Below, piece by piece: positions 24,518 through 55,891 of a DNA stretch of 64,000 nucleotides (position 1 is the stretch's first letter; each line of letters starts with the position of its first letter). The notes beneath the pieces are model-generated. The model was not told the DNA's origin and ran no database searches. It worked only from the letters and a program-made list of their open reading frames with translations. The translations under genes and the position numbers were made by a program. The DNA is from Mobula hypostoma. Taxonomy: Eukaryota. Location of the stretch: contig NC_086097.1 of assembly GCF_963921235.1 (NCBI RefSeq), positions 58,406,001-58,470,000 of the forward strand, written 5' to 3'.

Positions 24518-24670
<153 letters not shown>

Positions 24671-27414: not shown

Positions 27415-27568
27415 CAACACACATAAAAGTTGCTGGTGAACGCAGCAGGCCAGGCAGCATCTCTAGGAAGAGGTGCAGTCGATGTTTCAGGCCGAGACCC
27501 TTCATCAGGGACTGACTTTTATGTGTGTTGCTTGAATTTCCAGCATCTGCAGAATTCCTGTTGTTTGC
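27415..27568. mobile_element. Short Penelope-like end with an internal inversion and a decayed hammerhead (minus, 27477-27513)
   Basis: TSD GGTTAGTAATGTG at 27402-27414 and 27569-27581. Confidence 0.8.
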
Positions 27569-27798
27569 GGTTAGTAATGTGAATGTGTTATGGGACTTCA
27601 TAAATACATAGCAGCAAATCATCAAGATCATGCTAAAATACTGTTGGACCACAAGTGAAGTACTGCTTAGACGTACATTTGTGAGAGTACGTGTAGACGA
27701 AATTTCAGCTACAAGGTTAGACAGCAGAAGCTGGCATTGCTTGCTTCCTTGGAGCAAAGAAGATTCTGGAGAAATTTGATAGAAATGAAGGAGATATT

Positions 27799-28873
27799 CA
27801 CACAAAATGCTGGTGAAACGCAGCAGGCCAGGCAGCATCTATAGGAAGAAGTACAGTCGATGTTTCGGGCCAAGATCCTTTGTCAGGACTAACTGAAGGA
27901 AGAGGATAGTAAGAGATTTGAGAGGGGGAGGGGGAGATCCGAAATGATAGGAGAGGACAGGAGGGAGAGGGATGAAGCTAAGAGCTGGAAAGTTGATTGG
28001 CAAAAGGGATACAAGGCTGGAGAAGGGAGAGGATCATGGGACAGGAGGCCCAGGGAGAAGGAAAAGGGGGAGGGGGGGAACCCAAGGATAGGCAAGGGGT
28101 ATAGTCAGAGGGACAGAGGGAGAAAAAGGAGAGAGAGAGAGATAAAGAATGTGTGTATATAAATAAATAACAGATGGGGTACGAGGGGGAGGTGGGGCAT
28201 TAGCGGAAGTTAGAGAAGTCAGTGTTCATGCCATCAGGTTGGAGGCTACCCAGACAGAATATAAGGTGTTGTTCCTCCAACCTGAGTGCTGCTTCATCTT
28301 GACAGTAGAGGAGGCCATGGATAGACATAAGATGAAACCACACTCAGGTTGGAGGAACAACACCTTATATTCCATCTGGGTAGCCTCCAACCTGATGGCA
28401 TGAACATTGACTTCTCTGACTTCCATTAATGCTCCTCCTCCCCTTCTTACCCCATCCCTTATTTATTTATTATTTTTTCCTTTTTTTTTCTCTCTCTCTC
28501 TGTCCTCACAGTAACTCCTTTCCTCCTCTCCATTTTCCTCTCGTGCTCACCTCCCCCTTTCTTTCTCCCCAGGCCTCTGTCCCATGGTCCTCTCCCTTCT
28601 TCAGCCTTGTATCCTTTTTGCCAATCAACTTTCCAGCTCTTAGCTTCATCCACCCCCACCCCCCCATTCTTCTATCATTTCGGATCTCCCCCTCCCCCTC
28701 TCACTTTCTAATCTCTTACTATCTCTTCTTTCAGTTAGTCCTGATGAAGGATCTTGGCCCGAAACGTCGACTGTACTTCTTCCTATAGATGCTGCCTGGC
28801 CTGCTGCGTTCCACCAGCATTTTGTGTGTATTGCTTGAATTTGCAGCATCTGCAGATTTCCTCGTGTTTGGGG
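27799..28873. mobile_element. Penelope-like element made of two inverted 3' ends (GIY-YIG C-terminus, pyrimidine tract, hammerhead)
   Basis: TSD AGGAGATATT at 27789-27798 and 28874-28883; arms of about 530 bp meet near 28329; LEEQHL.F.LGSLQPDGMN appears on both strands. Confidence 0.85.
28736..28773 (+). ncRNA. Minimal hammerhead ribozyme motif (PLE type)
   Basis: AGTC-CTGATGA-AGGATCTTGGCCC-GAAA-CGTC^GACT; core intact, one mismatch in stem II. Confidence 0.7.
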
Positions 28874-30805
28874 AGGAGATATTGACTGGTTCCAATCATT
28901 TAACTGTTCTCATTTGTTCATGGACTTTGGAATACAGATTTACTTTTATGCAGGAGGCATATAAGGAACAACATTCTCTCAGGGATGAATAGTAATGATT
29001 TGGGATTTGAAACTGCAAGGGAACTGGAAATGGAAGCACCCTTTTCAATTAGGGTTTATGGGAAAATTTTCTGCAGAGGCAAAAGGAAAGAGTGGGGTGA
29101 ATGGAAATGTTGGGTCACTAGACTACTGGTGTAATAACTATGGTATGATATTAACTTTTTTTCAAGGTATTTAGACATTTTAAAATGAACATTTAGATAT
29201 GTTAAAATAAATACAGGTAATTCAAAATCTATAAATTTTCTGTAACTTGTGATTTTCCTTTGCCTTTGTTCCTCTCTATTGTATTGAGTACAATTGCTGA
29301 CAGGGAAGTAGAAGTTTGTGCATTGTATTAAAAACTTCCAACCTCTCAATGATTATTTGATTTTAAATTGCCAGCAGAATACTGTGAAAGTGATTGTCCT
29401 ATGAGGAAAGATTGAGCAGGCTGGGTATTTTCCATTTAACTCTGGAAGAATCAGAGATGATCTTATTGAAAGTTAGAACATCTCAAGAGGAATGGAAAAA
29501 GTAGTTGTGAGAGTGGATGCTAGTATGATGACAGTAGAACTTGGGCTGTAATTGCTGGGGTGTCAGTTTAAGAAGTAAATGAGGATGAAGTTATTCTGAG
29601 GTCATCATGAATCTTTGGAATTTTGTCTCCATGAGTTATGGAGGATGCCTTTGAATATATTCAAGATGGAGGAAGATGAAATTTGAACTTTAGGAAGGCT
29701 GGGGGTTGTAGAGTGTAGAAAGGAATTGATGTCAAGTCCAGATCAATAATATTGAATGGCAGAGCTGCCTCAGAGGATCATATGCCCTCCTCAAATTCTG
29801 AAACCAACAAATTCTGAAACCAAGCTCCTTCTGAATTAACCAAAATGTGACATTATAGATAACATGTATTGTACCAAGCAGTATATTTAGGAGAGAAATT
29901 TGGATTTCATCTTGCATACCTGTGATTTTTGCATAATACATTCTTAAGTTCTGTGCAGTATCACAAAAAAGAAGTAAAAAAGGATACCATTTCCTCTTCA
30001 ACCTGATCTCTGTGTCCAGAGTATGATGAAAATGATAATATTTCTTCATCTTAAGTAGTTACCTACCTAAGCTTGAAAAGACAAGTGTCTTTTAAGAGAT
30101 TTCTTTCGTATTCATTTCAGTCAAAATTGACCTCCCTTCAAACTTTCATGTGTGGGCTGAAGGTATTTTGATTTGTTCTTGATAATGTTATAAACAGTCC
30201 CATTTTTAATTAGGTTAATTAATACAGTGGAAACAATCTTTTATAAAGGTGAAAATAAAATATAGGCATGGCAAAAATTTGACTGCAAAAATGTGAGTAC
30301 AATTATTTTTTCTCTGGGAAGCTTGTTTGAGATTTATGTTGCTAGGAGCTTGGGAAAATTGGGAACAGGGGTGGGGGAATAATTGCCATTATTTCTAAAG
30401 GAAATTCTAAGCAACAAATTCTGAAGCCAAGGGGCTTTTCAATTGAGCAAAATGAGGTGCAAATCAGCTCTGATCTAATTGTTTGAACTGTACCACAGAG
30501 TTGGTTAATTGTGGTTGATTTGCATCTCAGACTTGTTTGTCTAAAATTGTTTCAGAGCTTTGGATTTTTGTAATGTAAGGTTGTCAGATCCAGTCAAGAA
30601 AGCTCCAGTAATTTCTAAAGATCAATTTAATCTTAACATAAAAATCCTCTTGACTTGCTCAGAGTCCTCAGTAATTTATAAACTTTACTGAGGCTTTAGA
30701 GACTACTGGCAGAAAAGCTCTGCACAACGTTGGAAGGTTATTTTATGTTACAATTGTGCACAGGATTCTAGGCTACTTATTCTTGCCCGAAAATCTAATT
30801 TTGAG

Positions 30806-33340
30806 TCTGATATTTGTAGTACTGGGAAGTCGGGTGGCCATGAATTACACACATGAGAGATGGAGAGGTGAGGAACAATGTGCAGGTGTTCATTTTGCTT
30901 ACAAGTCATAATCCCAGAATGCCCTCACATTATGTTCAGTACATAACACATAGGGGAGCTTGACAGCAAGCTGTAAGGGTCAAAGTATAAGTGAATACAT
31001 AACATAACCCTCCCCTCCTTATTTTAAAGGGTTATTCCCCTTCCCATATACTATTAACTTTCAATGGTGTAATCAAATTCTAACCAACAACAACATTTTC
31101 AGAATCAGGTTTAATATCATCGGCATATGTCGTGAAATTTGTTAACTTGCGGCAGTAGTACAATGGAATACATGACAATAAAGAAAAAATAGTAAGTAAA
31201 GCAATTACAGCAAGTATATATATATATATAGTTAAATAAAAAGTAGTGCAAAACAGAAATAATATTTTTTTTAAAAAGTGAAATGGTGTTCATGGGGTCA
31301 ATGTCCATTTAGGGGAAGAAGCTGTTCCTGAATCACTGAGTGTGTGTCTTCAGGCTTCTGTTCAGGCTGGGTTAATGGTTGCCTTCAAATCTCCACAAGC
31401 CATGAAGACCCATCCCTTAGGACAGGGGCCACAGAAGTTGCCCATTTAGTTACACACAGTAAGGTTCTAATACCTTACTCTGGACCAGTCTTTCCAATTC
31501 AGCCTCTACCTTTGGTTTGGGAACATGTGTAACAGGTCTTTCCTTCCGACATTTGGGTGTTGTGTCAGGCTTACCAGACAGCTTAGCAGTGGTTCCTTTC
31601 ATGCTGCCCAGTTCACCTCTGAATACTTGTGTGTGTTTCTTCAGTAGCTCTTGTAGACCAGTGCTTCCACCAATCAAGTGCACTTTGTGCTAGTTGAGCT
31701 CGAGCTGATCCAAGCACAAACAGCCCAAAAGCACTGGATAACTACCTTTAACTATGTACCATTTGTTAGTCTCACTGTAAGATGTACTACGTCCCTCACT
31801 GGAACAACTTCACCAGTGCAAGTCTTTAAAGTCAACCTTGCCCATTCTGGTGTGAGATGTTGCAATTTTCCTTGTAAACTGTCTCTTGACACCAGCGAAA
31901 CAGCAGGACCTCTGTCCACCTGCATACTCACTGTGACTATATTCAACCGGGGGGGGGGGGGGGATGGAATCACCCAATAGCCATATCTGTGTCCTACTAT
32001 GTCCTAGAACAGATAAAACATGCAAAGCTACTTCAACCACAATGAGAGTCACTCAGTCCATCCTCATTATGCTCCATCTTGTTCACTTTTCGTTTTGTTT
32101 TTCCAAAAGTCATTATTCTTCATTACGTTGTTTTAGCTTGACAGTGTCTTTTACTTTTATGTGTCCCATTTTGCCACAGTTTCGGCGGTCTAAATCCTTA
32201 TACTGGCATTCTTTTGCTGAATGCCCAGTTTTGGACAATGGTAACATTGATTGCCAATAAGTGTCCTATTCTTAAAGTCAGTATAATCTTTATGAACTTG
32301 AGAAGATACACTTAATAGCTGTGCTTCTTTAGTTGCCACCTCCATAGATGTATTAATCCCATTTGCTTTGTGTAATAATAGTATGTCTTACGTAAGCAAA
32401 TGTTTCTGAATTGCCGCACTGTGCAGACCACGTACGTCTATCATAATACGTGTCATTCAGCAATTGCCCAAAGTCAGTGTTCAGCAGATCAAAAATTCAA
32501 AGCAGATTTATTATCGAAGTACATATATGTAACTATATACAATCCTGAGAATTATTTTCTTGCAGGCATACTCAATAAATCCATTAAAGAATGACAACCA
32601 GAATAGAATCAATGGATGACCGCACCAGCTTTGGTGTTCAACCATCGTGCAAAAGACAATAAACTATTCAATACAAGAAAGAAAAATAATAATTATAAAT
32701 AGATAAGGAATGAATATTGAGAACATGAGATGAGGAGTCCTTGAAAGTGAGTCCATAGGTTGTGGGAGCGCTTCCACAATGGGGCAAGTGAAGGTATCCT
32801 CTTTGGTTCCACAGCCTGATGGGTAAGGGATAATAACTGTTCCTGAACCTGATGGTGTGGGTCCTGAAGCTCCTGTACCTCCCTGATGGCAGCAGAGAAA
32901 AGAGCATGATCTGGGTGGTGGGAGGTCCCTGATGTTGCCTCCCCCCTCCCTTTCCCCTCTCTCATTTGTTTTATTTAACCATCCTGTTCCTGCTTCTCCC
33001 CTCGGATTCTTCACTCACCAGGCTTCCTGCGGCTGTTTTCTTTCTGCTTGCCCACGTGATACTGCATTACGTTGGCAGTGTTGCAAACCGACTTTTCTTG
33101 CTGAAGGGAACAAAACAATGAATAGTGAGGACTTGTCACCTCATTGCCATTTATTATGTTTGCGATTCTGGAAGGCCGGGTGGCCGTGAATAACACAGGG
33201 AGAGGAGAGGAGAAGAACAAATGTGCAGCTGTTTATTTTGCTTGTAATTCATCTACCCAGAATGCCCTCTCACATTATGTTCAGTGCATTACACACAGGG
33301 AACCTTGACAGTAACCCGCCAGGGTCAAAATACATTAACA
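30806..33340 (-). mobile_element. Internally deleted Gypsy LTR retrotransposon with short LTRs (30806-31004 and 33152-33340)
   Basis: TSD TTGAG on both sides; PBS-like TGGCAATGAGG (33139-33149, minus); polypurine tract at ~31005-31025; gag knuckle CYHCPKLGHSAKEC; protease remnant MQVDRGPAVS; pre-RT segment KVEAELERL; LINE tails nested at ~31100-31365 and ~32490-32935. Confidence 0.85.
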
Positions 33341-34459
33341 TTGAGCAATGCTTTTTATGTTGACATTACAATTGAAACTCTCTGCATGAACCCCAGTATC
33401 AGTGTACACACAGCTTCTAGAATCTGTTATTTGACGATTTGGAAATCTCAGTGGTTTGGTATTTGACTCACCCAGATGATTTTCCCCAGTCTTCCTTTTG
33501 ACAGTCTGGGCTTTGGTCCCTGTGAACTATTTCAAATCATTGTGTTCACTGGAAAATGTACTTCATTATTGTTTTACCTCTGAAACAATGAATTGAAAGT
33601 GCATTGGAAAGTTAATTATAATAATATACAAAGGTTCAGAAAAGTCTCCCAGCCTGGAACCATCAGAATCCCAAATCTGCCAGGTTATCAGAGTTTTGCC
33701 AATGAAGGCAATGCCCCAGCTGCAGGATTTGTTGTGCTTATAAAGTATGCCCGTCATCTGGCTTCTTACAGGTTTTTACATGAGTAAAGTTATCTTGCCA
33801 CTCTGTCTTGATCTTTGTTTCCTGTGCTATGGGTCATTCTCCCACCTCAGGCCTACGTCAGCCCTATTCAATATTTAACTATACAGCAAAATCAAATCTT
33901 ATCTCCTCCCTTGATAAATTAAATTTATATCTCTAATATACAAAATCTATTTTTATTCTGTGCTCTTTCCTGGCCTTCTGCTTAAATAGAAATTGCTGTT
34001 AATCCATTTAAAGTGAAGGCAAAGTTTTCTTTTTTACTTTTATTTGCAATTAGACTTCTAGTTTAAATTTTAACAGTACAAAACTTCTGCCTTCTCGATT
34101 CCCACCCAATTCAAAATAAATTATTAAGTGTTTCTTTCAGGTCACTGCATCAGTCTTGAAGTTAATAGGAACCACTAATTATTATAGCTCAGGGAATGAA
34201 TTGATTTAATGATGAGTTCACCCAGTGTAAAAAACCTGTTCCAAATTTTATTAATAAATCATTGAGTTCTTAAAATAATTAACTACATTCCCCTCTGCTG
34301 CTCTTTTATTAATAAATAGCACGTCTCCAAAGTAAATGTCTCTTGTACTAAACCTAAGCTTTGTTTTATACGAACTCCAACCCAAAGTTCTTTCAGTTGA
34401 ATTTTCTTCCTAATAAAACATATACTTGGAATATTGCAATTCACACTTAGAATATTTTG

Positions 34460-35410
34460 TTTAGTTCTAGATGCCACATTTATAGGAAGGTTGTGGAAAC
34501 TTTAGAGAACCTGCAGAGGAGATTTACCAGGATGATGCCTGAATTGAAAACCATGTTTTATGAGGATAGATTAAGCGAGCTAGGGCTTAGTAGAAGTGTT
34601 AAAGATAATAAGAGACATTGATGGAATGGTCAGCCAGGGTTGAAATTGCTAATTCAAGCCTCAGATGGTTGAGGAAGTTTGGTATGGGCCCCCAAATCCT
34701 AAGAACTTTCTACAGGGGCACAGTTGAGAGCATCCTGACTGGCTGCATCACTGCCTGGTATGGGAACTGTACCTCCCTTAATCACAGGACTCTGCAGAAA
34801 GTGGTGCGGATAGCCCAGCGCATCTGTAGTTGTGAAATCTACAAAGACAAGTGTGTAAAAAGGGCCCGTAGGATCATTGGGGACCCGAGTCACCCCAACC
34901 ATAATCTATTCCAACTGCTACCATCCAGGAAACGGTACCACAGCATAAAAGCCAGGACCAACAGGCTCTGGGACAGCTTCTTCCACCAGGCCATCAGACT
35001 AATTAACTCACGTTGGTTTGAGTGTATTCTGTGTTACATAGACTGTTTTATTTATTATAAATTACTATGATTGCACATTGCTCATTTAGACAGAGACGTA
35101 ATGTAAAGATTTTTACTCATGTATGTGAAGGATGTAAGAAATAAAGTCAATTCAATTCATAACTAACGTGTTGGGAGGAAAGTATAGGGGGAGATATCAG
35201 AAGCGGGTTTCTTACATAGTAATCGGCGCATGGAATGCACTGCCAAGGTTGGTCATAGAGGCAGATCCATTAATGATGCTTGAGAGATAATTAGATAAGC
35301 ACATAGATGAAAGAAAAATGGAAGGGAAGGGTAAGATTGATCTTGGAATAGGTTAAGGGGTTGGCACAACATTGTAGGCTGAAGAGCTTCTACTGTTCTG
35401 TGCTCTATTC
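34460..35410 (+). mobile_element. CR1 3' fragment interrupted by a Rex1/Babar 3' end (~34660-35160)
   Basis: The Rex segment reads ESILTGCITAWYG...RLWDSFF with a (TCAAT)n tail; CR1 similarity on both sides. Confidence 0.7.
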
Positions 35411-35992
35411 TTGTCTCAATTTCATGTAATATTATGAACAAATCTCAACAGAAGATCAATTTATTGTCAACAAATCTAGCTTGCCACAATTTTTGATGTT
35501 TTTTTGTTCCATTTCCCACATAGATTGATGTGCAAGCACTCCCTATTCCATTTGCCATGTAAGCTTTTCACCAAAGTAAGGATTTGCTGGTGGGTGGGGC
35601 TGCCGCTGACTTCTCTGCACTCCTTGTGTCATATTCAGTTTCCTGCCCCATCTACGTCACCACTGTCCATGTCTCCAGACCGTAACACTTCACGTTACAA
35701 AGATTTTCACCTCACATGAGCCAAACCCATATCAGACCTCCCTAGGGAAGCTAGTGTAGAAAAGCTTTTTATTCTTTCTTTTAAAAAAATTAGTAACTCT
35801 TTAGTATAAAGGTCAGAAGGTAGTCATGTTAAAATGTGAAGCATTTGCTCATTATTGTTGCCATGAGATTTCTGGTTGTTATCTTTTAAGTTTGAAATGT
35901 ATTACAAATTGGTCTACGGCTGAAAAGAACTTAAACTGGAATCCTTTACTGTCTTCTGTTTGATGACCTTCACATACCCTTATTCTTGAGAG

Positions 35993-36610
35993 CAGCCTTT
36001 CTCAACCTTTTTTGCCCTGGAGGAACCCTTGAAATAATTTTCATGTCTTGGGGAACCGCTGCATAAAAATTATTATATCTACAGCTCACTGTATGGTAGA
36101 GTAATCATAAGTTGTAGATATAATAATCCAAAAATAATTTTCAATGCTATTTTGAGTAGAGAATGAATCTTTAGCCAACCTTTCTTGAAAAAAACAGATA
36201 GCTGAGCCTAGCTTGCCTTTCTTGAAATTAATCTCTTTCTTTCCCTTACATAATTTTTAAAAACTCATAAGGCAAACATAAATGTTTTCTTCCTAAGTGA
36301 CATGATCAGGCTCAAATATAGTCCAAACGATAAATTTCTTTTAAATAACTGGCTTAAGCCAAAATGGGATTCCATTTTTCTGAAGGTAGGCTTGGTGGAT
36401 TTACTTTAAATAAAGGTTGTAAATTGATTTTAATTAATGCTGCGTACAACATGAAAACTTATTGACAATGTTGAGTAGTAAGGTTACTAAAAACCATAAG
36501 CTAGAGGAATATGAATAAAAATACAGCCTAAGACACATCTTTATACAAGGCTTTGAAAAAACATTTTCTTACTAAGTAACATAATCAGGCTCAAATATAG
36601 CTAACATGTG
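35993..36610. mobile_element. Possible truncated hAT (Charlie-like) DNA transposon end
   Basis: Starts with the TIR-like CAGCCTTTCTCAACC followed by GGAACC subterminal motifs; no partner TIR found. Confidence 0.4.
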
Positions 36611-36649
36611 AAACCTGTGCTTGTTTTTTGCTGCACAAATACTCAATTA

Positions 36650-39432: not shown

Positions 39433-39643
39433 TTGAGTGACCTGTTTGTAATTTGGTATGTGTTGTGCAAATGAATGAAACTGAATGAACATCATTATCT
39501 GTGAGAAGCTAATGGATGGAGCTAGGTGTTTAGGTTAACTAAATGAGCCTTGACCTGTTAATGTGATTATGACAAGTTACACTCCATGTATTTGCTAAAG
39601 TTGACGTAGGATCCACTTAAGCAAATGATATTGCTTGCCTTTA

Positions 39644-40248
39644 CTACGCTCTGTCCGCCAGAGAAAGCAGGATCTCCTAGTGGCCACACATTTTAATTCC
39701 ACGTCCCATTCCCATTCTGATATGTCTATCCATGGCCTCCTCTACTGTAAAGATGAAGCCACACTCATGTTGGAGGAACAACACCTTGTATTCCATCTGG
39801 GTAGCCTCCAACCTGATGGCATGAACATTGACTTCTCAAACTTCCGCTAATGCCCCACCTCCCCCTCGTACCCCATCCATTATTTATTTATATACACACA
39901 TTCTTTTTTTCTCTCTCCTTTTTCTCCCTCTGTCCCTCTTACTATACCCCTTGCCCATCCTCTGGGTTTTTTCCCCCTCCCCCTTTTCTTTCTCCCTAGG
40001 CCTCCTGTCCTATGATCCTCTCATATCCCTTTTGCCAATCACCTGTCCAGCTCTTGGCTCCATCCCTCCCCCTCCTGTCTTCTCCTATCATTTTGGATCT
40101 CCCCCTCCCTCTCCCACTTTCAAATCTCTTACTAGCTGTTCTTTCAGTTAGTCCTGACGAAGGGTCTCGGCCCGAATTGCCGACTGTACCTCTTCCTAGA
40201 GATGCTGCCTGGCCTGATGCATTCACCAGCAACTTTTATGTGTGTTGC
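39644..40248 (+). mobile_element. 5'-truncated Penelope-like element 3' end
   Basis: TSD TTGCTTGCCTTTA (39631-43 and 40249-61); GIY-YIG C-terminal part VATHFNSTSHSHSDM...LEEQHLVFHLGSLQPDGMNIDF; hammerhead at ~40150-40186 with a broken GAAA (GAATTGCC). Confidence 0.85.
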
Positions 40249-41360: not shown

Positions 41361-41432
41361 GAGCAAGAAGAAAATAAAGGAGCCACCAGTTGGCCAGAGT
41401 TTTACATTGATCAGCTGAATTCTATGGCAGTT
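41361..41432 (+). CDS. DAAM1: DAAM1 coding exon: EQEENKGATSWPEFYIDQLNSMAV
   Basis: tttcacag|...|gtgagt, 72 nt, in frame with its neighbours. Confidence 0.96.
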
Positions 41433-45440: not shown

Positions 45441-46836
45441 GTACAGTCTGCATGCTGATTGTGAACTGCAAAATGAAAGTATGTATTTTGTTCAATTAGT
45501 GAAAAGTTAATGCATGTAAAAATCTGAGGATATATCTCTGCTAAAGTAAGGATTTGAGGAGTAATAGATTAAAAGTATTTTTCATACTTTTCTGTCTAGC
45601 TAATTTTCAGTATGTTGGCAGCCAGATGTAGCATCGGTGTGTTATCTTTGTAGAATATAAACAGATGAAAATTTGCTAAGCCCTATCTTTATGCTAGTGA
45701 TTCTTTCTTTGAGGGAATAACCTTTTTATTACTGCCTCACTCATTCAGCGAGGCAAAATGACTTGTCAGCTTCTAATCATTATCTTCATTTATTTTAAAT
45801 GTAGTTCATGAGCACATAATTATGGGCAAGGGAAGGCCACCTGATAGCTTGCTGTGTTTTTGCTGCTGAATGTGGTGCAAATTATGTTACGTTAATCTAT
45901 CACTGATAACTTCAGATACACATTGACATAGAAAGCACCATCTTATATAACTGTATCCTCCCTGTTTATCATTAGTTTCAAAGTACTGAAATATTCTGTT
46001 TCCATTGTCTTTGAGGACGAGAGTTCAGAATATTTATAACCCTCAAGATTTAGGCTGGAATATCGTGCAATCTCAAACCAAATATTCAAAACTGGACAGA
46101 AATTGTTGTAGAATCATCCAGTATTTCACTGTAGAGCAATGATGCAAATCTAACCAGTCCAACATTCCCTCATAAGACAACCAGCCCATTCTAGATTTAT
46201 ACAGAAAAGGTTAACAAATCTGACACCGACACCCACTCACCCACCTCTCTTTCTAAATAATGAAACCAATGCCGAAGAGTTAGGATTGGTTTTGACAAGT
46301 TGAATGTGGGGTTTTGTTTCTGCTGTGCTTCATGAGGATCCTTGATTTGAATCATGAGTATTTTAAGACCACTGTGGATAGATGTATGTTAAGCAGAAGG
46401 TAATAGGTGACTGTGGATTCATGGGAAACCAGAACTGAGATTGCAGTCAGACCACAGTTAATTTTATGAAATAATAGAGCAGGTTCGAGGCTGTGTGGTC
46501 TGATTTAATGTTTGTGGTTAGCTTTATTCACTTGCTGTACCTGCATGTCTTTAAAATCCTGCACTAGAGCATTTAAATCCCTCTGCAATTTGACGCCGTT
46601 TAGTTAGTGTTCTTTTCTTACAAATTCATTCCCATCTATTAATACACTTAATTTCTGTGATATAACAGTATTTATAATATTCTGAGAATTACCTGTCATT
46701 TAGTAACTTGGGAGAATTTTCTTGGTAAAATGTTAATTCAATTTTTGCTTTCAGATAATTAAGGTAAATTCTTTAAGAAACAATAGATCCTTTATGATTA
46801 TACAAAATCAAAAATGGCACCTCTTCTTTCTTTCAG

Positions 46837-46947
46837 TCTCTCATCAACGATTTGGACAGAAATACAGGAAGATACAGGGATGAAGTGAACCTTAAAACTG
46901 CTGTCATGTCTTTCATTAATGCTGTCCTAAGTCAAGGTTCAGGAGAG
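46837..46947 (+). CDS. DAAM1: DAAM1 coding exon (FH3): [37 protein letters not shown]
   Basis: tttcag|...|gtagga, 111 nt. Confidence 0.96.
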
Positions 46948-47193
46948 GTAGGAAATTTCTACTCAGCTAACCAAGAGTGATGGGTTTTTGCTAGTGGTAC
47001 AAATCAACAGACCATTTTGCTATCCATGGTGAGGTGAGACAGTGTTTGGTGAACAACAACGTGTGATTTACCTGTACTGCTCTTCTGTGTTAGATCAGCC
47101 TCGTCCCTTTAGAATGTAGCTTTTTAAATGTTGAACTCCGAGAGAGGGAAAAAAAACAAACTTGAAATTGTATTCTTTATTTTGTTCCAATAG

Positions 47194-47297
47194 GAAAGTC
47201 TTGATTTTAGAGTACATCTCCGATATGAATTTTTGATGTTAGGTATTCAACCTGTTATTGACAAATTGCGTGAACATGAAAATGCAACTTTAGATAG
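47194..47297 (+). CDS. DAAM1: DAAM1 coding exon (FH3): [34 protein letters not shown](R)
   Basis: aatag|...AG|gtgagc, 104 nt. Confidence 0.96.
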
Positions 47298-47380
47298 GTG
47301 AGCATATTTTATATAATCAATTTAACTTACTGAAAATTTGCTGATGATGGTTTTAAAGCTAATTTTTAATGATTTGTTAG

Positions 47381-47447
47381 GCATTTAGATTTTTTTGAGA
47401 TGCTGCGAAATGAGGATGAAATGGAACTAGCAAAAAGATTTGATGTG
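47381..47447 (+). CDS. DAAM1: DAAM1 coding exon: [22 protein letters not shown]
   Basis: ttag|...|gtaagt, 67 nt. Confidence 0.96.
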
Positions 47448-47532
47448 GTAAGTAGATCAGTTTCTGCTGGTGTGTTGTTTCATGCTGAATATTGTACAAA
47501 ATATGTTTTATTAATCTGCTGGTATTCTTCAG

Positions 47533-47650
47533 GTGCACATCGACACGAAAAGTGCTACCCAGGTATTTGAACTGGTCAAGAAAAAGATCAGCTATACAGA
47601 TGCATACCCGCACTTTATGTCAATTCTTCACCATTGGCTACAGATGCCAT
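47533..47650 (+). CDS. DAAM1: DAAM1 coding exon: [39 protein letters not shown](Y)
   Basis: ttcag|...|gtgagt, 118 nt. Confidence 0.95.
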
Positions 47651-47729
47651 GTGAGTACCACTTAGAGCTTGGTGTGGCAGAATGTTATTGAATTTCCAAG
47701 TGACGAGTGAGTAAAATGAAGGAAAATAA

Positions 47730-48175
47730 AGATTAAAGATCAGCTTTATTTGTCATGTGTACATTGAAACACACCATGAAATCCGTAGTTTGCATCAATG
47801 ACCAACACACACCAGAGATGTGTAGAAGGCCTGCATGTGTTGTCAACATAACATGCCCACTACCTACTAACTCTTGACAATTCAAACTGCCTGTACATGT
47901 TCTAAATACAGGACCTCTGTTTCCAGCCAGCCCACATGTCTGTTTTAATGCCTCTTAAAACATTCTGTACTGTATCTGCTTCTGTCATTTCATGCTGCAG
48001 TCTGTTACAGACATCTTCCCTACTTTGTGTGTGTGCAGCGGTGGGGGGGGGGTGCAGGGGGTAGTGGTAAGTTATAAAACAACTCGAGTTGTAAATCTCC
48101 TTTAAACTTTCCCCTTCTTGCCTTAAAGCCATGCCCTCAAGTATTTGACACTTCCCCCTTATAAAGCTGCACCCA
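47730..48175 (-). mobile_element. SINE tail plus old CR1 3' fragment
   Basis: Similarity to other copies in the window. Confidence 0.55.
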
Positions 48176-48315
48176 CTATGGGGCTTATACTCATATTCCA
48201 GAGATCAAGATCCTTCAGCTCTACCAATGGAGCGAGCCAGACTGGGTTGTGTATTTGCTGCATTCAGCTGTTACTTGTTCCAACTTTAATAGTTCCCTCT
48301 GCTTTTTCCTCCCAG

Positions 48316-48454
48316 ATAAGCGAAGTGGAAACACTGTACAATATTGGCTACTGCTGGACCGAATATTGCAACAGATAGTTTTACAGAACGATAAAGGGCA
48401 CGATCCTGATGTTACCCCTCTGGAAAATTTTAACGTGAGGAATGTTGTTAGAAT
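48316..48454 (+). CDS. DAAM1: DAAM1 coding exon: [45 protein letters not shown](M)
   Basis: cccag|...|gtaggt, 139 nt. Confidence 0.96.
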
Positions 48455-48576
48455 GTAGGTCCACTTCTTCTGTGGAGTGATTGGTCATAAGAATTATACT
48501 AATAGATACTTTGAGCTCAGACATTGTTTGCTAATTATCACTTTTTTTCTTTGAATTTGATCTTCTACACTAACAG

Positions 48577-48635
48577 GTTGGTTAATGAAAATGAGGTCAA
48601 ACAGTGGAAGGAACAAGCAGAAAAAATGCGAAAAG
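48577..48635 (+). CDS. DAAM1: DAAM1 coding exon: LVNENEVKQWKEQAEKMRK(E)
   Basis: taacag|...|gtgtgg, 59 nt. Confidence 0.95.
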
Positions 48636-49072
48636 GTGTGGTCTGTCTCTTTGGCTCTGATATTGTGTATGTGAAATAGTTTCGTTGTTCTTCCTCTACC
48701 CCAGCTCTATCCCATTACCAGTATTTTTTGCCCTCTACTGTTGTACTAAATTTTGCTGTTACGAAGTTGTAAGTACTTCCCCCACCCCACCCCTCCAATA
48801 GCTCTTTGGTGCTGTAATGCATGGCTTAAATGTTGTATAATTCAAGACTTTGTATGGGTGGAGAGTGCACTGTAGAACCTGCATTTTGGATTTCTTTCTG
48901 CACAAGTTGGTGGAAAGCACCCAGAATCAGCATCCATGTGATGTTAACAGTCTTGAGTCACAAGACTAACAACAGGGGAGGGAATTGCCCTGATCCCCGC
49001 AAATTAATAACAGCCATTGTTTGAAGGAGAGGTTATGCTCTACTTTTGTTGCCTATGTATCTCCATTTGCAG

Positions 49073-49260
49073 AGCACAATGAGCTACAACAAAAGTTGGA
49101 GAAGAAAGAAAGGGAATGTGAAGCTAAGACACAGGAAAAGGAGGAAATGATGCAAACACTGAATAAAATGAAAGAAAAACTGGAAAAGGAATCTCAGGAG
49201 CACAAAGCTGCTAAGAAACAGGCAGCTGATCTTGCGGCCCAGATCCAGGATCTCAGCAAT
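49073..49260 (+). CDS. DAAM1: DAAM1 coding exon (coiled coil): [18 protein letters not shown]...QIQDLSN
   Basis: tttgcag acceptor, 188 nt; the phase-compatible donor is AAT|gcaagt (GC). Confidence 0.9.
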
Positions 49261-49484
49261 GCAAGTTCCCGTTTAGTTAAATATCCTTTGCAGCTTCTTG
49301 TAAAATTTAACAAAGATTTTGCATAAATACACTTCACTGAAAAATCACATTTCTCTGGACCATGGTGATCAAAAAAAATAAGAACATAAATATATTAATA
49401 CAGTCTGTTTTCTCTGTTGCAAATTCTATCAGAGTATCTGGAATAAATCTAATTACCATTTTCTTTGTTTTATTTTGATTATAG

Positions 49485-49799
49485 AGAGCAAGTTTTGCTG
49501 GTGTTCCGGGTGGCTCCCTTTCACCTCCTGGAGCCCCTGGTGGACCACTGTTTTCCTCCGCACTTGCTTCAGGCAGTGGTCCGTCTCTTCCTCCTGCTGC
49601 TCCTGCTCTTCCATCAATGGGTGGGGTGCGCCCGCCTGTTCCACCCCCACCTCCTGGTGCACCGCCTCCACCTCCAGGTTTGCCACCAATGGGTGGTGTT
49701 CTACCTCCTCCAGGAGCCCCTTTGGGTTCAAGACACAAGAAAAATATTCCACAACCAGCAAATGCTTTAAAATCCTTCAACTGGTCCAAGTTACCAGAG
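49485..49799 (+). CDS. DAAM1: DAAM1 coding exon (proline-rich FH1 and start of FH2): RASFAGVPGG...PQPANALKSFNWSKLPE
   Basis: ttatag|...GAG|gtgagt, 315 nt; polyproline tracts followed by the FH2 lasso motif KSFNWSKL. Confidence 0.94.
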
Positions 49800-50051
49800 G
49801 TGAGTTCAACAAGACCAATGGTACAAGACCATTTAAAAAAAAACCTCCAAGGGAGATTTTTCTGAATTGTTTTTGTAATTAAAGTTTCTTATTGCCCATA
49901 CTAATTAAGACTGAAATTGAGCTTGTAATGGATTTCCAGTTAATAATTTAAAAGAAATGGATTATCTTAACTTGTAAATATTGTTTAATATTAATCTGCA
50001 TTTTGAATGGGTTATCTCAGCTGAAAGATTTTCTTTTTGATTTACTAATAG

Positions 50052-50159
50052 AATAAAATTGAGGAAACTATCTGGAGGGAGATTGATGATTTGAAGGTTT
50101 TTAAAGTACTTGACTTAGAAGATCTTGAAAAGACGTTCTCTGCATACCAAAGGCAACAG
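50052..50159 (+). CDS. DAAM1: DAAM1 coding exon (FH2): [36 protein letters not shown]
   Basis: aatag|...|gtaatt, 108 nt. Confidence 0.96.
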
Positions 50160-50449
50160 GTAATTTAAGTGAAATCACTCTATAATTTATATATCTTAAC
50201 AAGAGAACAGAGTAATTCCTGTGAATTCAGTAATATTTAGTCATTTTCACAGTGAGGAAACCTGCACGAGTTACTGACTGTATTCCAAATAATTCTGTAG
50301 TATTCAGAACAGTGCAAAGCTTTCTGCGTGAACTTGGCTTGACAGTTTAAATTCAGCAAACCAATATGCAATTTATTACTGCGAATCTGGCACTATTTCC
50401 AGTGCAGTATAAAGGCAATCACAGGATTCGGCAGAGGGTTTTGTAAATA

Positions 50450-50762
50450 GAGCAGCATGGTAGTGAAATTGCTTTACGGCGCCGGTGGTCACCAATCAAG
50501 GTTTGATTCCTGCTGTTGTCTGTAAGGAGTTTGCACTTTCTCCATGTGGCCATGCGAGTTTCCTCCGGGTGCTCTGCTTTCCTGCCATGTTCCAAAGACG
50601 TACAGTTAGGGTTAGTAACTGATGAGCATGCTATGTTGGCACCAGAAGCATGACAACACTTGTAAGCTGAACCCAGCACTATCCTCTCTGATTTGATTAG
50701 TTGCAAACAACGCATTTTACTGAACGTTTCGACGCACACGTGACAAATGAAGCTAATCTTTG
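50450..50762 (+). mobile_element. V-SINE (HE1-like) with a Rex/L2-type tail
   Basis: A/B-box head; V-domain ggagtttgcac...tttcctccgggtgctctgctttcct; tail gtgacaaatgaagctaatctt. Confidence 0.78.
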
Positions 50763-51439
50763 GCTACATTATTTTGATTGGGTGCATTTAAGAGACTTTT
50801 GTGTATATAGAGGCACTGCTGAGTAATTAATAGCAGATCCTCACTGGTGAAGGAAACAGTGAATAACGCATTTGTAGCAGAAATTATTTGTTGTATTTAT
50901 GGGAAGAGTGAAGAAAGTTGCAGTGAAATCAGCCAACTTTTGACTGCTCCAGCAAAGAGAAAGCACTGAGACAATGGGCTAAACGCTGCTCTTCGTTCTA
51001 GCCTTTTTTTTCCTAATTTTGCTCACTTTGAATTTCAAGCAAATTATTTTCTTCTATTTTGAAGCTGCTTATGTGTATCACCTGTCAGCATTATACTGAC
51101 GTGTTAATATGGTTTGTTAAATTGATACTGATTTGCATGTCACAGCTTTTGCATTATAATGTGAAGCATTACAGATTGATCGCCTATGATGCTTGAACCC
51201 TTTCAGCTGCAGGGACCTGTGTTAAAACTCCAACTAAATCTTACTCCAGCAATCTCAGTGGAGTATTGACAGTTCAGTCTTTTCTCTAAGATCATTGCAT
51301 TTTGACATACTGCAAGCAGATTATTTTAAGGTTACTTGATAATTTTGATATTATTGTCATTATCAAGTTCCATATGAATCTGACATTTAGCCAAAATATT
51401 TTTCCTTGTTATGGTGAAAGGGTTAATTTTTGCAGACAG

Positions 51440-51615
51440 CATTCTTGCTTGATGCTGGTATGTCTCCAATCACTTCTAATTTTTAAAATTTACTTATGCA
51501 ATTGTGCTGTGTCTATTTCGTTTGCCTCTTTGCAACAATTTCTGTACTGCAATTTTTTCATTGCCATTAACTGATGCTACCTGTTGTCCTCCTTATGCCT
51601 TGGCCTGCACTTCAG
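51440..51615 (+). promoter_or_regulatory. Splicing-regulatory region upstream of the microexon (long AG-free zone, UGC-rich)
   Basis: No AG from 51440 to 51613; 11 TGC triplets; candidate branch points ttctaat (~51474) and ttaactgat (~51567). Confidence 0.6.
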
Positions 51616-51645
51616 GATTTCTGTCTGAGCAATCATTCTAAGCAG
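51616..51645 (+). CDS. DAAM1: DAAM1 30-nt microexon in the FH2 linker: DFCLSNHSKQ (probably alternatively spliced)
   Basis: ttcag|GAT...CAG|gtaagc, phase 0/0; aligns to recalled human DFFVNSNSKQ between ...YQRQQ and KE... Confidence 0.9.
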
Positions 51646-52628
51646 GTAAGCATGTGCTTTTAATAAAGTGCAAGCAGTCTGTTTGTATAAATTGCAGCAT
51701 GTTTGCAAAGATAAAAATGCATATTAAACTTAGTTTAGGTGATGAGCACTTAAACAGTTTTGTGTACAAACTTGTATCACATCAACATTATCGCATTTTT
51801 AAGAAAATGTGACTAATTGTATTGTTCTGAAGTTTGATTTTATAAGTAATTTGGGTATTACCACAATGCAGACAATAATTCAGATTAATTCTACTTTGTA
51901 ATAAAGCTATGAAGGGGCAATAAAGCCTTTTAATTAGACACGAGTTTGTAACATGAAATATAAAAGATGCACGATGGTCCAAAACGAAACTCGCAAGCAT
52001 TAGAAATACAAAACCAAACTGATTTTGGTGTGAATAAGTGAGAGGCAAAAAGTAAGATTTAAGAATGTGAAATGTAGTTCATGATCAGTTTTGTACAGCA
52101 CAAATTATGGTTAAAGAAGTAAAGCATTGACATTTTTGAATGATGTATATATTACAATGGGATGGATTGGCTTGTGTGAAAAGGCTAGTTTTAACCGTAG
52201 ACTTATTCCTACTTCCTGTAATTGAAAAGGAATTTTAAAATGAAAAAACTTATGTACGTTGTGCCAATCATGTGCATTAAAGATCTATGTGTGGATTTTA
52301 TTACATTACGCTTTACACCGTTTTCTTTATTTTGAGATTAAACTGAGGCTTAGGAGGGTTGTTTTACTTAAGTAAGAATACTTCGGTCTGTGGGTTCACC
52401 TTTATCATTGGAAGATTAAATTCACCTTTAGAATTATACGTAGAAAGGACATGTACCTTCAGAGTTTCGTAAGTCAATCCAAATATTAAGAAATAGTTAA
52501 CTGTATTTTGTCCTCATTCATTTAGAGATTGGGGTTCAGGTGCTAAATTAAGTAGAATTTTATTAGGTTATTGAGTATTTTCATTATAGCTTCAGGTTAT
52601 CTAATGTGCCCTTTTTTTTGGACTATAG

Positions 52629-52735
52629 AAAGAGACAGATTCTAATGAAGACACATTAAATTCTACCAAGAAAGTCAAAGAATTGTCTGTAATAGATGGG
52701 AGAAGAGCACAGAATTGCAATATTCTTCTATCCAG
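52629..52735 (+). CDS. DAAM1: DAAM1 coding exon (FH2): [35 protein letters not shown](R)
   Basis: ctatag|...AG|gtaatg, 107 nt; last exon found in the window. Confidence 0.96.
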
Positions 52736-53305
52736 GTAATGGTTTTATCATTTATTACAAGAAAGCTTGAAAATCCTGCACTTTATTTTATGATTTGTGC
52801 ATTTAAATGTTTGTAATGATTGTAATCTGTTCTTTACGTTCATTAGGTAATTGGTTCATTAGGTTCACTGCAGTAGATACAAAAACAACAGTGGTGTCAT
52901 AGGCAGAGCCATTGCCTACAGTGGTTAGTAATACATGTCCTGACCAATATTTGGAGCTGCTTGTATTAACAGGAGTGGCAGCATCTGGAGTTGCCTTTCA
53001 AGTTGATACAAAAGAGTTGATTTTCTCCTCATTTAGTTGGAAGGATTTAAGTTACCAAACACAGCAGGATCTGTACATTCCACATTTTTTCCTCTCCACA
53101 ATCTCATTGCCATTTATTGCTTTTTGGATCTGCTAGCTTGCAGAGAGGAAATCAATTGTTTGTGATCCTGCAGCTGATTGCTTTCAACAAGATTGTATCT
53201 TTTATGGAAACAACAGGAATTCTGCAGATGCTGGAAATTCAAGCAACACACATCAAAGTTGCTGGTGAACGCAGCAGGCCAAGCAGCATCTATAGGAAGA
53301 GGCGC

Positions 53306-53341
53306 AGTCGACGTTTCAGGCCGAGACCCTTCGTCAGGACT
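53306..53341 (-). ncRNA. Minimal hammerhead ribozyme motif (mirror copy)
   Basis: Exact reverse complement of 53356-53391. Confidence 0.75.
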
Positions 53342-53355
53342 AGACAGATTTGACT

Positions 53356-53391
53356 AGTCCTGACGAAGGGTCTCGGCCTGAAACGTCGACT
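53356..53391 (+). ncRNA. Minimal hammerhead ribozyme motif
   Basis: AGTC-CTGACGA-AGGGTCTCGGCCT-GAAA-CGTC^GACT; all core nucleotides present; predicted cut after 53387. Confidence 0.75.
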
Positions 53392-53949
53392 GCGCCTCTT
53401 CCTATAGATGCTGCTTGGCCTGCTGCGTTCACCAGCAACTTTGATCTTTTATGGACTTGTTTTGTCTTCATTGTTGGCTCTTTTTGTGTAACATGCAATG
53501 TGCTGGCAAGTGTATGCTTGTTTAACTTGCACGTTCAGCATATTCTTTATGATGATGATGAAATGTTGAGCATGTGGGTGTACAAATTGTAAAAGCTGGG
53601 GAAAAATTAATGGTTTCAATTGTGTGCTCTGATTTGGAAGGCATATTTTAAAATGATTTTTTAGTGTTTTGGGGCTTACAGTTCAAGTTAAGACTTTTAA
53701 ATGGTTGTGCAACTGACTGATCCTTTTGACTGATGAATAACGGTCATGAATTTGAGGATAATTTCTATTAAATGTTCCAAAATGAAGATATTGTTAAGGG
53801 TTTATCTTTGTTTAAAACGTGTGACAGTTTCTCTCTCTTCTGAGAGAACAGGGTTGAGTGTGTGCTGAAGTGCGTGTCAATCTTTTTAAGTCTGAATATG
53901 AATTATGTAGAAAAAATAGATGATAAGACAAAGATTGAATGACATAATT

Positions 53950-55175
53950 CTGCTCCTATCAAGTTGACCACACCATTTGATCATGGCTGAGTTATTTTCC
54001 ATTTTTAAAGCTATTTCTCCCAATAACCTGTAACACCCTTACTAATCAAGAACCTATCAATTTCTGCTTTAAATATGCCCAATGACTTGGTGCTACAGCC
54101 ATCTGTGGCAATAAATTCCACAGATTCACCAGCCTCTGGCTATAGAGATTCTTTCTATCCCTGTTTTAAAGGGACACTCGTGTATTCTGAGGGTTGATCT
54201 CTGGTCCTAGAGTCTCCTACTGTCGGAACCATCCTCTGCATGTCCACTCTAACTATGACTTTCAATATTTGGTAGATTTCAATGAGATCCCACCCCCTCA
54301 TTCTTATAATGAGGGAGTACATGCCTAGAGCCATCACACACTCCTCCTACATTAATCCTTACAGTCCTGGAATCATTCTCATAAGCGAGTTCTAGACCCT
54401 CCCCCATGCTCACACATCCTTTCTTAGATATGGAGCCTAAAGCTGCTCACAATGCTCTAAACGTGGTCTTACCAATGTCTTATGAGGCCTCAGCATTACA
54501 TCCTTGCCTTCATACTCTGATATGAATGCTAACATTGCACTTGCCGTACTTACTACTGACTCAACCTGCAAATTAACCTTTAGGAATCCTGCAGTATGGC
54601 ACCCTAGTCTCTTTGCTCAGATGATTTCTAAATTTGTTACAACTTTATTACTTTTACCAAGTGCATGACCTTACACTTCCCTATACTGTATTCCCTCTGC
54701 CACTTCTTTGTCCATTTTCCTACTCTGCCTAAGTCCTTCTGCAGACTCCCTGCTTCTTCAGCACTACCTGTCTCTCCACCTATCTCTGCATCATCTGCAA
54801 ACATGGCCACAAAGACATTAATTCCATCATGTAGAACGTTAACATATAATGTGGGTCGTAACAGATACAACACAGACCTCTGTGGAACACCACTGGTTAC
54901 CAGCAGCCAACCAGAAGAGGCTTCCTTTATTCACACTCTTTGCTTCTGCAGCCAGCCAATCTTCGATCCATGCTAGTATCTTTCCTGTATTACCATGGGC
55001 TCCTGTCTTGTTTAGCAGCCTCACGCATGGCACTTTGTGAAAGGCCTTCTGAAAATCCAAGTAAACAACATTCACGGACTCTCCTTTGTCCATCCTGTTT
55101 GTTATTTCCTCAAAGAATTCCAGCAGATTTGTCAGGCAAGATTTGCCCTTAAGCAAACTGTGCTAAATCTGGCCT
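53950..55175 (-). mobile_element. Degenerate CR1 LINE (RT to 3' end)
   Basis: KGKSCLTNLLEFFEE, YLDFQKAF and MFADD motifs in broken frames. Confidence 0.85.
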
Positions 55176-55203
55176 TTTTCCAAGTTCACGTTTAATTGTC
55201 ATT

Positions 55204-55487
55204 GGGGTGTCATGGTGGCGTAGTGGTTAGCACGGCACTGTTACAGTTAGGGGTGTCGGAGTTCGGCATTCAATTCCGACATCATCTGTAGGGAGTTCTT
55301 CCCATAGATTGTGTGGGTTTTCTCTGGGTGCTCTGGTTTCCACCCAGCTTCCGAAGACTTGCTGGTTATTAGGTAAGTTGTTCATTCTGAATTGTCCCAT
55401 GATTAGGCTAGGTTGAATCAGTGGTTGCTGGGGCAATGCAGCTTGAAGAGCCTATTCCACGCTGTATCTCTAAAATAAATAAAATTA
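55204..55487 (+). mobile_element. V-SINE (HE1-like) with a CR1-type tail
   Basis: A box TGGCGTAGTGG, V-domain, and tail gcctattccacgctgtatctctaaaataaataaaat. Confidence 0.78.
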
Positions 55488-55699
55488 TACACATGTATAA
55501 AGCTACACTAAACAGTGCTCCTCCAGGACCAAAGTGCAGAACACAGTATATATACAGCATATGTACAGTAGTTACGATAGTAATTACAGTCACAGTATAA
55601 TATTAGCCCTAGCCCCTGTGTGGCATGGCTTGAAGATCGATGACGCGTAGGATGTTGTCCTGGAGCCATGTTTCTGCAAGAACAAGCATGCAGCAGTTC

Positions 55700-55808
55700 C
55701 TCATCTCCCGCTGGTTCAGCCCCAGATGAAGAGAGTCCAGCTCGTCTCGCACTGGTTCAGCCCGAGGTGAAGAGAGTCCAGCTCATCTCGCGCTGGTTCA
55801 GCCCCAGG
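55700..55808. repeat. 41-bp tandem repeat, about 2.7 copies
   Basis: Units start at 55700, 55741 and 55782 (ctcatctcgcgctggttcagccccaggtgaagagagtccag-like). Confidence 0.9.
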
Positions 55809-55891
55809 TCTCAGCCCGAAACGTCGACTGTACCTCTTCCTATGGATGCTGCCTGGCCTGCTGCGTTCACCAGCATTTTTTGTGTGTGTTG
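55806..55891 (+). mobile_element. Penelope-like terminal fragment (3' half of the hammerhead)
   Basis: ggtctcagcccGAAACGTCgactg...accagcattttt; lacks CTGANGA. Confidence 0.75.

Follow-up and report, generated by a model that had tools for sequence, protein, structure and literature searches.

Are the short hammerhead ribozyme-bearing sequences in the introns of the formin gene DAAM1 of Mobula hypostoma an independently mobile family, as an earlier note on this DNA proposed, or remnants of an autonomous Penelope-like element (PLE)? We conclude that they are very probably 5′-truncated 3′ ends of an abundant endonuclease-bearing PLE, likely inserted by its protein as dead ends. The window (the whole stretch analyzed, 64 000 nucleotides of contig NC_086097.1) contained six matches to the core pattern at ≤3 mismatches, compared with none in 100 shuffles, and BLAST brought in two further copies, at 55807 and a relic at 19585. 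Pattern search and BLAST thus placed all seven named copies and the 19585 relic where they had been reported. Their reported location inside DAAM1 introns also holds, since AG/GT-edged exons flank every copy. One such exon (24518–24607, +) lies upstream of the 27–40 kb copies, and an FH2-domain exon (52629–52736, +), matching DAAM1 chains 2z6e and 2j1d in the PDB (E 8e-12), lies upstream of the copies at 53 and 55.8 kb. Further AG/GT-edged exons occur at about 41361–41432 and, next, ~15 kb beyond the window; a PDB search with the 44026 exon returned unrelated weak matches only. Special enrichment in DAAM1 was rejected, as the eight arms observed against 3.6 expected (p = 0.03) lie in a window picked for these arms.

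The seven named copies resolve into five insertions (element positions are numbered from the A of stem I AGTC). A 154-bp inverted insertion (27415–27568, 13-bp target site duplication (TSD)) joins a short-tail arm (−, −4 to +98) with a damaged hammerhead to a 51-bp long-tail arm (+, +82 to +132). A 1.07-kb inverted insertion (27799–28873, 10-bp TSD), its hammerheads mutated, consists of arms at 27808–28328 (−, −420 to +81) and 28329–28868 (+, −392 to +132), both reaching the 3′ end of the PLE ORF. The 235-bp inverted insertion (53209–53443, 12-bp TSD) pairs a long-tail arm (53209–53342, −, −1 to +132) with a short-tail arm (53355–53445, +, −1 to +89), the 95-bp arms being complementary at 99%. 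Two insertions are single arms: one (39644–40248, +, −498 to +101, 13-bp TSD) is 5′-truncated and carries the final GIY-YIG ORF codons (frame 39641–39847), the 3′ UTR and a broken hammerhead, and the other (55807–55894, +, +13 to +100) is a short-tail arm lacking the CUGANGA core. The old relic (19585–19692, +, +15 to +122) has 76% identity to the reference and no core; for it and the 55807 arm no TSD was found, as was the case in 8 of 66 inverted pairs and 66 of 120 single arms in our wider sample. The sizes and TSDs reported for the 154- and 235-bp units were therefore correct, but both are inverted two-arm insertions and not unit-length elements. Window copies end 3′ at one of two fixed positions ~34 nt apart (+98 or +132), extend backwards for variable lengths through 3′ UTR and ORF sequence, and carry TSDs of 10–15 bp.

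A full hammerhead core had been read in at least seven copies; the whole motif is present in only two of the seven (53306–53341, −, and 53356–53391, +, the latter with C17 at 53387 and a predicted cut after it). Both contain stem I AGUC/GACU, the extra A after A9, stem II and ACGU as described, and CUGANGA and GAAA boxes with an NUH triplet are likewise found in two of seven window copies. The other five are damaged: 27477 (−) has an additional C and ACAU in place of ACGU, 27855 (−) lacks G8 as well as the palindrome, 28736 (+) retains the core with one mismatch in stem II, both GAAA and GUC are gone from 40150 (+), and 55806 (+) begins 13 nt inside the motif, without CUGANGA. Most window copies are mutated and likely inactive. 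From sequence and predicted folds, helices I and II can form, with an extra base at 9/10.1 and a loopless palindromic 15.2–16.2, features that match PMC4209133 and bear out the reading as a minimal type I hammerhead of PLEs, in which a single copy is unable to close helix III. A hammerhead covariance search, which the note had recommended, gave no hammerhead family match in Rfam at E ≤ 1. Within the family there were no compensatory changes, the sole stem II variation being a C/U wobble at +23, and, in a comparison aimed at selection on the catalytic core, non-CpG changes among copies numbered 7/1161 compared with 94/8127 (p = 0.10). By analogy with PMC4209133, dimer cleavage is plausible; nearest-neighbour energies, which leave out tertiary contacts, are lower for inactive folds (−22.0 kcal/mol for two monomers and −30.3 for the best cofold, against −11.5 for the active dimer).

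Genome-wide, pattern matching supplied the copy count that had been called for: 45 139 exact hammerhead motifs. The full element (locus L071) carries two hammerheads 3512 nt apart, one in each of two 906-bp direct repeats (pLTRs, 99% identical) surrounding a 1043-codon open frame with reverse transcriptase (RT; E 3e-5) and GIY-YIG (E 0.0024) matches, both under Pfam's cut-offs. Its protein has DKG and CX4CxxC motifs and 1089 relatives at E ≤ 1e-20; among those with names, shark and ray proteins are the closest. The CX2-5CxxC linker between RT and C-terminal GIY-YIG, with CxxC inside the motif, would by sequence place the element in the Neptune (or Nematis) clade as defined in passages of PMC8557442; assignment to Poseidon was dropped on the same motif. 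Probe counts drop stepwise toward the element 5′ end, from 108 956 (+33 to +56) through 53 658 (−30 to −7) and 38 167 (ORF end) to 604 (ORF start).

To describe how copies are inserted, we used an arm sample covering ~1.8 Mb of the 3.5-Gb genome, about half of it picked for an exact hammerhead match; extrapolation puts the genome total at about 190 000 arms. The 3′ ends of 255 arms were bimodal. All but one of the 66 inverted pairs (65/66, p = 9e-19) combined one long-tail with one short-tail arm; arm lengths within pairs correlated (rho 0.66), and paired arms differed at 39 of 327 variable sites, compared with 47% when shuffled. The PAc element of Anolis provides a model for two-strand nicking and internal RT start sites (PMC11167929). 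By that analogy, the endonuclease would nick both target strands 13–15 nt apart, and from each nick RT would start at one of the two internal sites, with a single RNA probably serving both. Double priming at different start sites would therefore produce a head-to-head pair whose tails differ, one being long and the other short. About one third of cDNAs stop within ~25 nt of the hammerhead 5′ edge, giving 100–140-nt arms that resemble mini-elements.

The 5′ ends depart from plain random truncation: 19 of 70 arms end at −10 to +13, 11 times the rate of −350 to −11 (p = 5e-11), at the upstream edge of the hammerhead and not at its cut site. Long- and short-tail arms pile up at the same position (p = 0.35), so a fixed cDNA length was rejected as the cause. 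Many templates may instead begin near this edge, the RNA being primed at the 5′ repeat copy and copied by run-off, and we consider such a template start likelier than ribozyme cleavage as the cause of the 5′ stops. Since full-length copies mostly reach far upstream of the 5′ hammerhead, longer templates also exist. A stall of RT at the folded hammerhead, or at a protein on it, on templates that do not begin there, is somewhat less probable but deserves attention, and touches the cause of the pile-up only, leaving family status unchanged. It agrees with an end zone that is broad and lacks a sharp edge or cap-G, and self-complementary words by stem I provide fold-back junctions. The monomer is predicted to form a stable two-stem hairpin (−11.7 kcal/mol), yet this fold is no stabler than shuffles (z −0.94), and RT, which meets the 3′ side of the hairpin first, would be expected to stall there and not at the 5′ edge. 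Moreover, the identical upstream hammerhead of full-length copies stops cDNAs less often (ends at −34 to +13 in 3/21 full-length copies vs 26/70 terminal arms, p = 0.06). A single start site with a cap-G at −4 was not supported: of 1763 breaks there, the first 100 had G in 29 (by eye), compared with 24/100 among 884 breaks at −5, with no sharp start. Forward-spliced short copies sharing a first exon were absent from 85 junctions and, by eye, from the first 100 of 2139 genome matches breaking at −2. About half of the −2 breaks are point changes.

With template starts near the hammerhead edge as the favoured origin of the pile-up, there remains the proposal that the short copies form a SINE- or retrozyme-like family that moves independently and has master copies of its own. 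It is largely refuted, and we regard it as very improbable, because 5′ ends are ragged and no column separates short from long arms. In 900 kb of unselected DNA, 50 arms had 5′ ends spread between +102 and −3345, grading into long ORF-bearing copies, and 85 junctions range from −44 to +22 without a common 5′ end. Between 110 short and 119 long arms, the commonest letter differs in none of 90 columns (lowest p 0.05, uncorrected), and haplotypes are common to both; of 93 short arms, 9 have their closest match among the other short arms and 18 among the long arms, and 66 are ties. Variable breakpoints without diagnostic mutations are the combination by which the earlier note itself would recognize mere truncations. 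Short arms are, in keeping with a separate family, very common (about half of arms end in the 63 nt across the hammerhead), occur with TSDs and all hold the 3′ start sites needed in cis, and genuine ORF-less tandems exist elsewhere in the genome. However, no short head-to-tail tandem was seen among 195 hammerhead-spanning arms, which included only three same-strand hammerhead pairs <1.2 kb apart, none abutting; the single tandem junction counted genome-wide was found at two loci only. Short copies also lack the ORF-start sequence past the tail that the Anolis protein requires on its template (PMC11167929). In the window, all copies are solo or inverted, without two or more consecutive head-to-tail hammerhead units, a fixed monomer length or family-specific sequence.

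That the short copies were reverse-transcribed from RNA cut by the ribozyme, their ends recording self-cleavage in vivo, is extremely improbable, and cleavage-defined ends were rejected on probe counts and arm starts: 2 of 255 arms do start at +32 and +33, but this equals the expectation from 21 ends spread over +14 to +60, none of 50 unselected arms starts at +30 to +34, the cut-site probe (CpG-tolerant and more permissive) is not rarer than that just 3′ (134 891 vs 108 956), and most short copies retain the whole ribozyme. Cutting would require a dimer or the aid of a protein, and the ribozyme is likely without effect in this window because its copies there stand alone, lie antiparallel or are mutated.

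Outside the window, two independent insertions (L271 and L274) are ORF-less head-to-tail hammerhead tandems with a 310-nt unit, each inside a single TSD: L271 has 4.1 copies and a 13-bp TSD, L274 two junctions and a 9-bp TSD. Their joints are exact, from a GT (RTATCCTTT) donor to an AG acceptor, and +308 in the ORF is the sole RTATCCTT site in the 3.6-kb unit. The source haplotypes at the two loci differ, and the junction shows none of the amplification of a family. PLE RNA may be back-spliced from the minor-spliceosome-type donor at +308 to an acceptor lying 2 nt upstream of the hammerhead; the resulting 310-nt circle would hold the ribozyme and both RT start sites, and the element's RT could roll round it and insert ORF-less hammerhead tandems. 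The one-long-one-short rule would be the trace left in the genome by two RT active sites that primed on a single RNA. We advance this combined scheme tentatively, as having nearly an even chance of being right. A spliced-circle route to retrozymes is possible, but rare. Four contig sets aligned to the element showed no molecule ends and, among the joints listed (15 of 174), none at +308/−2, which is neutral.

As first noted, the observation has little significance: the hammerhead is a known PLE motif, and the window copies are decaying intron passengers. High copy number nevertheless makes this family a natural data set on PLE transposition. It shows that the two target nicks draw on different RT start sites, that insertions bear no visible trace of the ribozyme cut site, and that some templates were short and either circular or re-entered. 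If back-splicing is true, PLEs give birth to retrozymes by a splicing route independent of ribozyme cleavage, and the GT-AG circle, if real, would link the autonomous PLE to the retrozyme by a concrete step that can be tested.

Motif and insertion forms alike are already published for PLEs. In the main-text parts of PMC4209133 (Cervera and De la Pena 2014), which name no cartilaginous fish, minimal hammerheads in the pLTRs of metazoan PLEs lack loop 3, have a palindromic 15.2–16.2 and an extra base between 9 and 10.1, and occur as scattered single motifs with opposite-strand pairs 100–700 bp apart. The present motif agrees in being type I, with G10.1 at the stem II base and a 4–5-bp helix I, in two copies flanking the ORF and in mostly single motifs with some opposite-strand pairs. 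It differs from those accounts in helix II (4 bp with a 4-nt loop, vs 7–8 bp in Schistosoma), in number (45 139 exact motifs vs about 4000–9000 in coelacanth and Xenopus) and in its little sequence variety. Non-LTR retrozymes (PMC7229834; bioRxiv 10.64898/2026.07.22.740005) are similarly short, non-coding and PLE-related with a type I hammerhead; the latter source derives them from PLE pLTRs and reports them in one cartilaginous fish. Retrozymes repeat a fixed unit head to tail and count expression as linear and circular RNA among their marks, whereas window copies are solo or head-to-head without such a unit, and the tandem rule fits only the rare arrays L271, L274, L254 and L272 outside the window. 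Like PAc, an Anolis Poseidon element (PMC11167929), the present element has a tail defined by two internal RT start sites, a hammerhead of stems I and II alone and no sign of ends at the cut site; PAc, by clade, lacks the linker Zn finger, and its ORF begins inside the hammerhead, whereas the long frame here begins ~90 nt downstream of the motif start. A likeness in form is also found to canonical EN+ PLE insertion units of the Neptune/Nematis type, in passages of PMC8557442 and PMC3846280: a partial tandem pLTR-ORF-pLTR, heavy 5′ truncation and a CX2-5CxxC linker ahead of GIY-YIG. The 65/66 count of one long with one short tail and the 5′ pile-up at the hammerhead edge are figures absent from those passages. 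The same insertion architecture is described there and in PMC11167929, and all its marks are found here: 5′ truncation, an adjacent inverted partner, an optional one-ended tail of 30–40 nt and a TSD.

A hammerhead core pattern allowing up to three mismatches matched the window six times, against no match in 100 shuffles, and BLAST added two further copies, the truncated one at 55807 and a relic at 19585, confirming the positions reported in the earlier note. Five insertions account for the seven named copies: three inverted pairs of arms (27415-27568, 27799-28873 and 53209-53443), an arm being one element stretch in a single orientation, and two single arms (39644-40248 and 55807-55894). TSDs of 13, 10, 13 and 12 bp mark four of these; none was found at the 55807 copy. 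The full hammerhead core once ascribed to all seven is complete in two (53306-53341, minus strand, and 53356-53391, plus strand); each of the other five is missing a core base, the palindrome, one stem II pair or the entire CUGANGA box. An Rfam search did not detect the motif. The location within DAAM1 introns stands, as one exon matches DAAM1 in PDB and exons with proper edges flank every named copy on both sides. Other non-LTR retrotransposons are represented in these introns by long frames resembling reverse transcriptase (24716-26153, plus; 687-2969, minus; 60432-63304, plus), and a 41-bp tandem repeat (~2.6 copies, 55700-55806) abuts the truncated 55807 arm on its upstream side.

The 39.6-kb copy runs upstream into 69 codons with genome matches at at least 150 places, some of them in open frames of more than 900 codons. 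A complete element elsewhere in the genome (L071) carries a pair of identical hammerheads, at a spacing of 3,512 nt, in 906-bp direct repeats (99%) surrounding a 1,043-codon frame with reverse transcriptase and C-terminal GIY-YIG matches, both below Pfam cut-offs. Its DKG motif and CX4CxxC linker would, by motif only, group it with the Neptune/Nematis Penelope-like elements (PLEs) as defined in PMC8557442; the closest named relatives of its protein are from one stingray and two sharks (68-78% identity), which points to a cartilaginous fish as the likely host. The exact 34-nt motif occurs 45,139 times in 3.48 Gb (reversed control, 0), and the ORF-start motif only 604 times genome-wide. The motif is of a known kind, correctly spotted, in a new and very abundant PLE family. 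At one locus (L273), three or more element units, 99% identical to L071, lie in a natural tandem at a spacing of ~3.5 kb; a transcript of such a locus would bring hammerheads together. Hammerhead-like motifs with a longer stem II and different stem I sequences (L067:8974, L068 on the minus strand, L114:6958) probably stem from other PLE families.

We aligned 255 distinct arms drawn from three sources: the window, 900 kb of DNA taken without selection, and pattern-chosen loci. Inclusion required at least 84% identity across the terminal region, and at first pass 80 of 304 matches, which were weaker or could not be scored, were dropped. Positions take the A of stem I (AGTC) as 0, which puts the predicted cut after +31. 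Their 3' ends fall into two groups, near +98 (short tail) and near +132 (long tail), and the 5' ends of 50 unselected arms form a continuum between +102 and -3345. When 110 short arms were compared with 119 long ones, none of 90 columns differed in its commonest letter (lowest p 0.05, uncorrected), and variable-column haplotypes were common to both. The 85 placeable short-arm junctions scatter from -44 to +22 with no upstream sequence in common, and 195 hammerhead-spanning arms include three same-strand pairs less than 1.2 kb apart and none abutting. By the earlier note's own standard (random breakpoints, no shared diagnostic mutations), these ragged ends and common variants count against its proposal of an independently mobile short family, which is not supported.

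The 5' ends pile up at the upstream edge of the hammerhead: the stretch -10 to +13 takes the ends of 19 of 70 arms, 11 times the rate over -350 to -11 (p 5e-11), in a sample of 43 unselected arms and 30 picked solely by the +33 to +56 motif. Genome counts agree (108,956 for +33 to +56, 53,658 for -30 to -7 and 38,167 for the ORF end; these probes match 75%, 79% and 72% of 85 long arms, the first of them offset by one base). Ends were not enriched at the cut site itself, with 2 among all 255 arms and 0 among the 50 unselected ones, and neither a sharp start nor a cap-G was found at -4. Long-tail and short-tail arms share the pile-up position, so the template, and not a length limit, sets it. 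Fewer ends lie at the upstream hammerhead of full-length copies (3/21, p 0.06; hand tally omitting L261 and L265, two loci broken inside the ORF). A structural stall at the hammerhead is a quite possible cause; run-off from templates starting near the hammerhead would also produce the pile-up, and we lean modestly towards it.

Head-to-head pairs (5' ends at most 150 nt apart, n = 66) combine one long-tail with one short-tail arm in 65 cases (p 9e-19), including all three window pairs; the remaining pair has two long tails, and none has two short tails. Arm lengths correlate within pairs (rho 0.66), the two arms differ at 39/327 variable sites vs 47% in shuffled pairs, and most TSDs measure 13-15 bp, with none detected in 8/66. 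According to PMC8557442 and PMC3846280, PLE tails frequently occur on one end only, and an Anolis PLE protein is described in PMC11167929 as cutting and extending both strands in vitro, with two internal starts defining the tail. Each target nick therefore probably primes at its own start site, with a single RNA as the likely template. A literature search on twin priming gave no paper whose title concerns PLE insertions.

Among 47 distinct insertions outside the window, 17 by hand tally stop in the first 900 nt of the ORF and then rejoin the repeat or a partner arm. Microhomology leaves the cut ambiguous among 2-6 equally good positions in 15 of 18 ORF-to-repeat junctions. A further one is clean but not splice-like, and the last two, at L271 and L274, share an identical clean join from +307 to -2, between GT and AG. 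Both loci are hammerhead tandems, head-to-tail and lacking the ORF, built of a shared 310-nt unit (L271:3974-5236, G000:C2:157816473-157817735; L274:2782-3245, G000:C50). Their donor, GTATCCTTT (RTATCCTTT), the sole such site in the element unit, is the U12 consensus as given in PMC2846911; a pyrimidine tract precedes the acceptor, and the U12 branch site is matched only in part. The two insertions are independent: flanks, TSDs and tail types all differ, and for each unit the closest full-length copy is a different one, at one change, against five changes between the two units. The nearest full-length copies all have the GT donor. At L254, L272 and L271 one junction recurs within one TSD, the pattern expected from rolling round a small template. 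A back-spliced circle, copied by reverse transcription in rolling-circle mode, is a candidate source of L271 and L274. Against this, the +307/-2 junction is confined genome-wide to these two cases (6 matches), the donor reads AT in 21/36 matches examined, and the donor lies in coding sequence too. The same join could also arise if a multi-unit transcript were spliced forwards. A literature search found no paper linking a Penelope retrotransposon with a U12-type intron, and the supplements of PMC4209133 and bioRxiv 10.64898/2026.07.22.740005 may already list the motif or tandems from cartilaginous fish.

Other short tandems have microhomology junctions (units of ~435 nt in L254/L255, ~262 in L272, ~341 in L241/L242 and ~277 in L285), with one junction repeated within one TSD in L254/L255 and L272. 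Fourteen of the 18 junctions exit the ORF at +241 to +333, 12 of those at or before +307, a cluster that may reflect a short RNA whose end lies close to the donor site. Positions -26 to -3 (window 40124-40147) hold a branch-point-like word, a pyrimidine tract and CAG immediately before hammerhead stem I; in Drosophila Penelope, according to PMC4209133, an intron has its end at helix I. Forward-spliced copies of the element did not turn up.

A single copy is predicted to fold inactively, its core bases GACG pairing with the cleavage-strand CGUC. An energy model that ignores tertiary contacts gives inactive folds greater stability than the active dimer. These predictions fit the low or protein-dependent hammerhead activity reported for PLEs in PMC4209133 and PMC11167929. 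Cleavage of DAAM1 pre-mRNA is unlikely, because the predicted structure ties up the only intact sense-strand copy in a 95-bp duplex formed with its inverted counterpart. In its anatomy, the window ribozyme agrees in every respect with the published minimal type I hammerhead (PMC4209133).
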